Of a DNA stretch of 64,000 nt, positions 26,669-30,938 are shown one piece after another. This DNA comes from a virus. Location: the IMG/VR virus record IMGVR_UViG_3300027983_002383; one strand, given 5' to 3'. The notes under the pieces were generated by a model that saw nothing but the letters and a program-made list of their open reading frames with translations, searched no databases and had not been told where the DNA came from. Numbering within the stretch: the stretch's first letter is position 1; each line of letters starts with the position of its first letter. A program made the translations under genes and the position numbers.

Positions 26669-26760
26669 CTATAACGTGTTAAATATGGTGAGTAGCCGCC
26701 AATAAGTTTGCTACGAAGAACAAATGTTTAATCGGCTATTCACTATATTTTGTGTTAGCC
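26669..26760 (+). mobile_element. attC-like site 1 (92 bp)
   Basis: CTATAAC ... GTTAGCC ends; 17-bp imperfect inverted repeat AATATGGTGAGTAGCCG / CGGCTATTCACTATATT. Confidence 0.65.
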
Positions 26761-26775
26761 ACTTTACGGTAAATT

Positions 26776-27042
26776 ATGACAGATACATTTAGATACTTCA
26801 TTAGAAAAAACTTCCCTGGAATTGGAAAAATAAGTAATGAAGATATAGACGAAATAGGAATTGAATTTCATAAACACTTGGATAGTAAATTAAATGATGA
26901 ACAAAAGATCAAGATACTACCTAAAAGTGTAATGGATATAGTAATGAATAGCAATCATCCATTTAAAACAAATGGATTTGAACCTGCTTATGTACTACAC
27001 TTTACTCAATGGGTAAAAGAACAACAGGAAGCACAGATGTAG
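26776..27042 (+). CDS. small cassette ORF
   Basis: Between attC-like sites 1 and 2. Confidence 0.65.
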   Translation: MTDTFRYFIRKNFPGIGKISNEDIDEIGIEFHKHLDSKLNDEQKIKILPKSVMDIVMNSNHPFKTNGFEPAYVLHFTQWVKEQQEAQM

Positions 27043-27048
27043 TATTGC

Positions 27049-27249
27049 TGCCAACGGTTAAGCTATGTTTAGATTTTTAACGGACAAATAAATAGAATAT
27101 TATGGATAGTAGAGAATTTTTAGATAATGAATTATTAGATGTGCCGAGATTCAAAATTGAGTACCCAAAAATGTATGAAGATATAATATCCATAATGGAT
27201 AGATACCACCGGGAGCAAGTTGAAAAATTGAACATAGATAATGTTAGCA
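27049..27249 (+). mobile_element. attC-like site 2 (201 bp) with ORF in its loop
   Basis: TGCCAAC ... GTTAGCA; arms CTATGTTTAGATTTTT / AAAAATTGAACATAG with one extra base on left arm. Confidence 0.55.
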
Positions 27250-27272
27250 ACCAACGCAACTTAAAAGGATAA
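27102..27272 (+). CDS. 56-aa ORF inside attC-like site 2 (not in ORF track)
   Basis: MDSREFLDNELLDVPRFKIEYPKMYEDIISIMDRYHREQVEKLNIDNVSNQRNLKG. Confidence 0.6.
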   Translation: MDSREFLDNELLDVPRFKIEYPKMYEDIISIMDRYHREQVEKLNIDNVSNQRNLKG

Positions 27273-27276
27273 TAAA

Positions 27277-27474
27277 ATGAAAATAATTATTGAAAGAAAC
27301 CAAAACGAAAGCCAATCACCAATAGTAACAATAGATACTACAACGTGCCACTACCCTTATGATATTAGAGGAGCGATAGAGTTGGCTTTGGAAATAGACG
27401 GGCACTCTAAAGAAACAATAAAAGAGGTATTTGGAATAATGCCTGATGCTAAATGTGAAGTAGAAAGCGAATAA
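27277..27474 (+). CDS. small cassette ORF
   Basis: Between attC-like sites 2 and 3. Confidence 0.65.
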   Translation: MKIIIERNQNESQSPIVTIDTTTCHYPYDIRGAIELALEIDGHSKETIKEVFGIMPDAKCEVESE

Positions 27475-27484
27475 TTTTTATTGT

Positions 27485-27535
27485 AGTTAACGCCCAAATA
27501 AAAGCCGTTTCAATGGCTGTTTATAAGGTGTTATG
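27485..27535 (+). mobile_element. attC-like site 3 (51 bp)
   Basis: GTTAAC-gcccaa-ATAAAAGCC / GGCTGTTAT-aaggt-GTTATGA. Confidence 0.55.
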
Positions 27536-27633
27536 ACAAAGTAAAGTGATTAAAAAACAGGACAAAAAATAAATAAATTATATTATTATGAATATAGATA
27601 AAAAGATATGAATTATAATAAAACAGAAAAAAG

Positions 27634-30392: not shown

Positions 30393-30938
30393 ATGAAATC
30401 AAATTTAACAGAAAAACTAGTAGATATTTGCGGTCACTCTATGGAAGCATTGGGTATTAACAATTTAACCGAAGAACAACTCATACAAGTAGAAGCAGAA
30501 CTTATTAAACACTTTGAGTTCGATAAAATTATTTGGATGAAACATCCGGGTGAATTAGCAGAAGATAACACAACCCCAATTGTTGTAAAATCAATAAAAA
30601 TATCAGATGCCGATAACCCAACTTATAAACACAAAGTAGGATACATTCATAGTATAATGTTTACTCCAAAAATGTATGAGCCAGGTACAATGCATACTCC
30701 AGTAAACGATGGATGTGTATTTGCCCCCACCACTTACAACCCAGAAACATTTGAACCTAAACAAAGTATTACTCTAACTTGGTCACCTGATTTTCCTCAA
30801 GATATTGATGCTCCACAAAGAACATATGAAGATGATAAACAAATGATTCGTGATATGTTAGAAAAAGTATTGGATAATCCTGAAGAGTATAGACCTCATA
30901 CGCACTCAGGATGTATCGTAAGATTTGCAGCTGTATAA
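30393..30938 (+). CDS. hypothetical protein
   Basis: ORF. Confidence 0.7.
   Translation: MKSNLTEKLVDICGHSMEALGINNLTEEQLIQVEAELIKHFEFDKIIWMKHPGELAEDNTTPIVVKSIKISDADNPTYKHKVGYIHSIMFTPKMYEPGTMHTPVNDGCVFAPTTYNPETFEPKQSITLTWSPDFPQDIDAPQRTYEDDKQMIRDMLEKVLDNPEEYRPHTHSGCIVRFAAV

Follow-up and report, generated by a model that had tools for sequence, protein, structure and literature searches.

Can recombination at an attC-like hairpin exchange one half of a protein whose reading frame begins within the hairpin itself? This question is raised by an array of three attC-like sites that is located within 0.9 kb of a large phage genome and was analysed here in a 64-kb stretch of DNA, hereafter termed the window. 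The window has a G+C content of approximately 30%, carries nearly all of its genes on one strand and matches 75- to 100-kb contigs from aquatic metagenomes that contain phage-type cargo. All elements of the array lie on the plus strand. Site 1 (26669 to 26761) is an 84-nt hairpin of the same kind as site 2, with the core AAC at 26673, the core GTT at 26754 and fold z-scores of -3.1/-3.6; it is followed by ORF A (26776 to 27042), an 88-aa body between sites 1 and 2. Site 2 is a 193-nt hairpin with AAC at 27053 and GTT at 27243. As the sequence-only reading had stated, an ORF of 56 aa (27102 to 27272) starts in the loop of this site and continues through its right arm and GTT core, which represents codon 48 (Val48) and separates a hairpin-encoded head of 47 aa from a truncated tail of 9 aa. 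ORF B (27277 to 27474; 65 aa) has its own ATG and is out of frame with the head of site 2, and site 3 (27485 to 27536) is a short hairpin with AAC at 27489, GTT at 27530 and fold z-scores of -1.8/-2.3. A match of 82% to site 1 that is restricted to the site itself was found in the Cellulophaga phage phi18:3. Since site 1 matches phi18:3 and related arrays are present in Polaribacter and Cellulophaga phages, the host of the phage probably belongs to the Bacteroidota.

Two further observations concern the surroundings of site 2. The loop of site 1 likewise contains an ATG (26724) from which the same phase runs through GTT; the resulting 22-aa ORF (26724 to 26792) overlaps the start of ORF A, shares its first 14 codons with phi18:3 and is possibly a translational-coupling leader. 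Contig L005 of the same phage (13840 onward) departs from the window after the gene ending at 30938 and carries an alternative block with SprT-like, PTPS, radical SAM and GTP cyclohydrolase I genes, a divergence that represents either a variant or an assembly difference.

The left arm of site 2 (27049 to 27081) consists of the core AAC (27053 to 27055), a 7-nt spacer and the inner stem (27063 to 27081). The loop (27082 to 27218) contains an A/T-rich leader, the ATG at 27102 and most of the head, whereas the right arm (27219 to 27249), with the inner stem at 27219 to 27237, a 5-nt spacer and GTT at 27243 to 27245, encodes a conserved linker and the head/tail junction. The two inner stems pair without gaps and form 15 Watson-Crick pairs at 19 positions, the other four positions being three G.T pairs on the plus strand and one mismatch; the asymmetry of the arms resides in the spacer, which is 2 to 4 nt longer on the left arm. 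The inner stems are 137 nt apart; with arms that end at 27078 and begin again at 27223, the distance becomes 144 nt, in agreement with the previously noted value. With a score of 28, against 0.4 expected per shuffled window, site 2 is the top-scoring AAC..GTT arm pair of the window, and its arms folded on their own differ from shuffled arms at p=0.01, so that the complementarity proposed from the sequence alone does exceed shuffled controls. Since an equally good fold is reached by 5% of the AAC..GTT pairs picked at random from the window and the whole-site fold yields only z=-0.94, site 2 taken alone is only modestly above chance; for its arms, the minus strand is marginally more stable than the plus strand (-9.1 vs -8.1 kcal/mol). 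The reality of the site is settled by its relatives, and it is this comparative evidence that we regard as decisive.

Neither a sigma-70 or Bacteroidota-type promoter nor a terminator was detected above chance inside site 2, so that an explanation of the site as a promoter/terminator module was rejected, and Rfam gave no match for the region. Six Bacteroidota-type promoter matches are located elsewhere in the window (17130, 24912, 33458, 35948, 42423 and 63458, all on the plus strand); they have one common 3' octamer and their number equals that expected by chance.

Approximately 18 sites on other contigs retain both arms of site 2, with unrelated loops and differing tails. Wobble pairs in the inner stems of this site-2 family were G.T on the gene strand in all 38 cases and in none on the other strand. 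Of 20 members of this family (L088, L258-L267 and L378-L382), 12 have AAT as their left core, which still permits a T.G pair, but solely on the gene strand. The loci were gathered by motif patterns, and their counts are therefore not population frequencies. The site detector returned 421 sites, compared with approximately 24 in shuffled DNA. Unrelated repeat loci from one sample were left out of the metagenome-scan set. The excluded repeat (L094-L213, sample Ga0209562) is abundant, richer in GC and preceded by simple repeats; an 18-nt stretch that it has in common with the left arm was treated as coincidence.

In 102 of 141 long phage loops, no stop codon interrupts the final 120 nt of the frame in which GTT is read as valine, whereas the other two frames are open in 19 and 6, and host loops are open in the valine frame in 5 of 22 cases. 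Both parts of the encoded proteins are under purifying selection: dN/dS was 0.21 for the loop heads (20 independent pairs, p=2e-20, arm codons removed) and 0.13 for the bodies (18 pairs). Because this frame is open in most loops and dN/dS is low for heads and bodies alike, the architecture of loop head plus body is best read as coding and selected. Typical bodies possess no start codon, comprise 26 to 58 aa and often end with a stop codon in or near the left core of the next site. Long loops of 200 to 300 nt (L011, L015, L034, L038, L039 and L047) contain a complete ORF in 29 of 106 cases, compared with 9 in antisense direction, and are often followed by a body that is empty, measures about 25 nt and has ends complementary to each other, which suggests that the loop itself may serve as cargo bay. 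An annotated gene of a cultured phage, gp107 of phi18:3 (L003:5710-5991), consists of a right arm and a body with complementary ends. Many bodies (P0006-P0008, P0015, P0018, P0058 and P0074) are short and contain paired cysteines, suggestive of small zinc-binding modules, and others resemble acidic helices. An AlphaFold model of an intact relative, computed from an alignment of five sequences, was uninformative, with a pLDDT of 52.

With respect to the origin of this reading frame, the notion that the arm alone dictates the phase was discarded, since host arms are open in 52, 65 and 26 of 73 cases, depending on the frame. De novo birth of heads from host loops was not supported either, as none of 140 head-bearing sites aligned over its full length to host sites. 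One head was also found in ordinary genes devoid of arms. The lack of alignment to host loops together with the occurrence of a head in arm-less genes argues that the loops probably captured gene fragments.

Is there, then, evidence that the two parts of these proteins are exchanged? While a single-sequence search of billions of proteins returned no homolog of the 56-aa ORF but only the ORF itself, a profile search placed it in a family of 96 proteins. Among these, 81 could be split at the valine, yielding 70 pairs with the same head and another body, 25 pairs with the same body and another head, and one pair sharing both; the split proteins form 48 head clusters and 68 body clusters, and the pairs are not independent. 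In three contigs, the stretch between the left core and GTT is essentially the same, but the sequences become unrelated within 1 to 6 nt past GTT. The tails behind identical heads are joined in frame, with divergence setting in 0 to 6 nt after GTT, and the flanks of a 223-nt hairpin, whose copies are 99% identical, differ exactly at AAC and at GTT. One body follows hairpins with arms that are dissimilar nearly as far as GTT (L037, L050 and L062), and shared homology begins at most 10 nt from GTT in 8 of 18 pairs. Moreover, the ends of the bodies are self-complementary (3.9 of 6 positions vs 2.3), a property that is retained in swapped pairs. Comparison of these loci demonstrates that heads and bodies have been shuffled among phages, with junctions at GTT or directly behind it.

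The orientation of the sites bears on the question of where the primary crossover takes place. The gene strand folds better at 134 of 162 sites and contains 2.44 G.T pairs per site, compared with 0.26 on the opposite strand. In integrons, the recombining bottom strand is distinguished by the better fold and the G.T bias and is cut in its AAC (PMC5027507). The gene strand also displays the order AAC-G..T-GTT, which corresponds to the bottom-strand form of attCaadA7. When hairpins were compared between loci, the hairpin was shared together with the downstream side only in eight cases and with the upstream side only in none, while neither side was shared in 34. Left breakpoints are located at AAC and do not differ from random flanks (p=0.31). 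Of 25 right breakpoints, 13 are no more than 3 nt away from GTT; overall, they run past GTT further than expected by chance (6.6 vs 2.1 nt, p=2e-7), and hence not every swap occurred at one base. Homologs of ORF A end at the left AAC of site 2, and in locus L223 ORF A is still preceded by site 1. Comparison of the loci thus shows the sites to be inverted relative to the phage genes. Since the fold bias, the G.T pairs, the AAC-G..T-GTT signature, the linkage of hairpins with their downstream side and the host arrays described below all reflect this inversion, the primary crossover is placed at the left AAC (27053 to 27055), upstream of the ORF and presumably equivalent to R'. Since 20 of 115 neighbouring hairpins are flipped, both cores appear to be usable.

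No gene matching the host recombinases was detected by tblastn in the window, which covers 64 kb of a 95- to 100-kb contig, and of 18 related phages with near-complete sequences, only two encode a tyrosine recombinase of the PF00589 family. Hairpins with the same arms, in size classes of about 123 and 188 nt, are organised in arrays in Flavobacteriaceae-related genomes. These arrays are situated directly behind a co-oriented gene encoding an Xer-like recombinase of 375 to 380 aa with PF13495 and PF00589 domains in 11 of 13 recombinase loci examined, and the first host unit begins at GTT just past the recombinase. The chromosomal arrays L363-L377 (e.g. L364:3529-17200) carry a short palindrome and GTT, resembling attI, right past the recombinase stop codon. 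Genes flanking the host sites are located on the opposite strand in 116 of 128 cases; host loops are mostly non-coding, and their hairpins show the same two-ended reuse as those of the phages. The TIGR02249 cut-off was passed in none of 61 host-related genomes, with the match being split around the insert: the host recombinase spans about 63 model positions with some 21 residues at the IntI insert, which makes it about 40 residues short. The Flavobacteriaceae Xer-like recombinase, which is linked to the sites by adjacency only, likely acts in trans on the phage sites.

These data led us to propose, with a probability of about two in three, that site 2 is the single-strand recombination hairpin of an integron-like system of Bacteroidota, carried in inverted orientation by the phage, and that heads and bodies are reassorted by a host enzyme. 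Inverted carriage would put the hairpin before its gene. As the comparison of loci shows, the phage sites have, in place of the non-coding loop of the host hairpins, a leader, an ATG and a coding head of some 45 to 50 codons, which continues in a single phase across the right arm into a start-less body. During infection, the host Xer-like recombinase would act in trans on the folded strand and cut at the left AAC, thereby shifting hairpin and body as one unit. A second exchange at the GTT end, either by opposite-strand recombination or by replacement of the hairpin, would place a new body behind the head and produce a new chimeric protein of about 80 to 90 aa. In the present phage, the body of site 2 and the hairpin of ORF B would later have been mostly deleted, leaving the head with a stub of nine residues.

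As the primary unit would comprise the hairpin and the downstream body, an ordinary integron-type event is expected to move head and tail together, and a swap of the tail would need either the second exchange at the GTT end or a crossover within the arm that the sites share. According to the latter explanation, chimeras arise by homologous or microhomology recombination within the 25 to 30 nt of the right arm, the enzyme cuts at the left AAC only, and the shuffling is a by-product of a repeated arm. Right arms hardly differ among the members of the site-2 family, many swaps occurred between identical right arms, a crossover anywhere in the arm would yield the observed pattern with intact body ends, and the right breakpoints are more spread than the left ones. 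For many of the swaps, recombination in the shared arm is a fair rival. As a general account of the chimeras we consider it unlikely, because it is at odds with the body found behind hairpins of differing arms and with the pairs whose shared homology begins close to GTT, because flipped hairpins require both cores to be usable, and because the host arrays display the same two-ended pattern. The sequence-only reading had instead assumed that recombination swaps the C-terminal tail, which in canonical orientation would mean an integron crossover G/TT at 27243 inside the ORF, a new tail with each excision and a hairpin that travels with ORF A. The exchange of tails is borne out by identical heads with unrelated sequences past GTT and by selection on both parts, but the primary crossover would be the left AAC and not GTT. 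Tails do change at GTT, and many relatives combine a left core degenerated to AAT with an intact right GTT, which is partly an effect of pattern selection; nevertheless, the canonical orientation is disfavoured and very improbable, as not one hairpin was linked solely to the gene upstream of it, homologs of ORF A break at the left AAC with L223 keeping site 1 upstream, the gene strand has bottom-strand properties and host genes run the opposite way.

The copy in the window itself is a less favourable case. The ORF was called in 11 contigs of the same phage, had no match in PHROGs and yielded scores at chance level only in the Atlas search. Its tail comprises nine residues, compared with 26 to 67 in relatives (26 or more in 78 of 81), and bodies of at least 20 residues follow 95 of 100 long heads. 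The expectation that the C-terminus is specified by the site and the next cassette was therefore confirmed for the site, since right arm and GTT core are read in frame, but not for the cassette, as no intact cassette follows. The nine residues start like a body class of 36 to 42 aa, and this relic of a body (27243 to 27276) would be joined by a deletion to the leader of ORF B. Homologs of ORF B have their own, different upstream hairpin and a start box complementary to the gene end; ORF B of the window has lost this hairpin, and there is no match between its start box and its end box. The simplest reading of the short tail, which we consider quite probable, is that a deletion removed the body together with the hairpin of ORF B. 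Since six other copies of the phage are identical over site 2, with neither an excised nor a rearranged form, no ongoing rearrangement is seen.

This raises the question whether the 56-aa ORF is a dead remnant, or a chance open frame in A/T-rich DNA, that is untranslated or devoid of function. Such a reading concerns this copy alone and not the family. It would fit the truncated tail and the missing close homologs, and the identity of all copies makes selection unmeasurable on this allele. Its head, however, is free of stop codons and frameshifts, has the length, phase and leader position of the family and is 37% identical to one intact member over 63% of that protein, and the three substitutions in the arms of site 2, two of which are synonymous, preserve pairing on the gene strand. 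A dead remnant is thus somewhat unlikely. The likeliest remaining role, put forward only tentatively, would be that of a free head peptide or of a translated leader that ends 4 nt before the ATG of ORF B. Site 2 hence appears to be a poor, degraded specimen of the system, with its tail apparently deleted.

A broader interpretation is that Bacteroidota phages turned a gene-capture system of their hosts into a natural combinatorial protein library, in which loops capture the N-terminal halves of ordinary phage genes, the arm provides a linker of fixed phase and a host Xer-like recombinase using either core joins the parts site-specifically; we put this forward tentatively, at slightly less than even odds. 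If true, the system would actively supply phages with ORFan proteins, and it offers a concrete, testable origin for many singleton small phage proteins, as exemplified by the 56-aa ORF, which lacks homologs by single-sequence search yet belongs to a family of interchangeable halves. An exchange at the second core also touches the genesis of cassettes, i.e. how a site joins a new gene, with the junction being readable here from the protein sequence. Cultured phage-host pairs with the system are available for Cellulophaga and Polaribacter.

The array can finally be compared with known systems. With three sites and no integrase nearby in the 64 kb searched, it has the composition of a CALIN, defined by at least two attC-like sites without an adjacent integrase. 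The CALINs of phages, such as Polaribacter phage P12002L (Qi et al. 2023, PMC9892861), likewise consist of AAC..GTT hairpins that separate small genes of one orientation and have no integrase in their vicinity. Site 3 belongs to the same class as attC1 of P12002L (Table S3), which has its bottom-strand form on the gene strand and was the only site that IntI1 failed to recombine. The accessible parts of that report note divergent sites as well, and they describe neither loop-started ORFs nor inverted polarity or head/body shuffling. The published attC2 of P12002L (L352:3700-3745, L272:7240-7265 region) points in the opposite direction to attC1, and another copy of its arm is present at a different place in that genome. 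Integron attC sites (PMC5027507) and site 2 have in common the cores, an imperfect stem, strand bias with G.T pairs and self-complementary unit ends. They differ in that the loop of site 2 measures 137 to 144 nt, compared with 3 to 100 nt in class 1 sites (PMC7439510), is coding, and belongs to a site that precedes its gene and has no clear single extrahelical base. An attC site downstream of its own gene, with the gene on the top strand, is the arrangement of the host arrays and not that of the phages. No IntI with its insert is located beside the array in the window, and the candidate host enzyme, which remains below the TIGR02249 cut-off, is distinguished from IntI by the residues missing at the insert. 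The system thus works like integron attC sites in a CALIN, yet it departs from them in orientation, loop size and the type of recombinase.

The rAID-1 arrays of Bacteroidales (bioRxiv 10.1101/471110) are, in the accessible portion of the preprint, chromosomal and characterised by a 5' XerD-like recombinase, co-oriented genes, repeated intergenic sequences and immunity cargo, with recombinases defined by more than 44% identity to BF9343_RS08045 together with immunity-gene cargo. Their layout resembles that of the Flavobacteriaceae arrays, which have same-arm hairpins with mostly non-coding loops behind an XerD-like recombinase, a gene that is absent from the window. Translation through an attC site has a precedent in GCUF1-OXA-28, an in-frame fusion protein (PMC3375312), and attC-embedded peptide linkers and domain shuffling were put forward as an engineering tool (PMC7439510). 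Our literature search, with most subscription journals outside its coverage, retrieved no paper on loop-initiated, fixed-phase head/body shuffling. The layout described here is real and common and has strong comparative support; with the proposed mechanism, it would be the natural counterpart to domain shuffling hitherto proposed only for engineering. Whereas GCUF1-OXA-28 is one accidental clinical fusion with a start codon upstream of the site, and the engineered sites are designed, the phage system combines a start codon within the loop, a fixed phase and start-less bodies with many natural pairings under selection.
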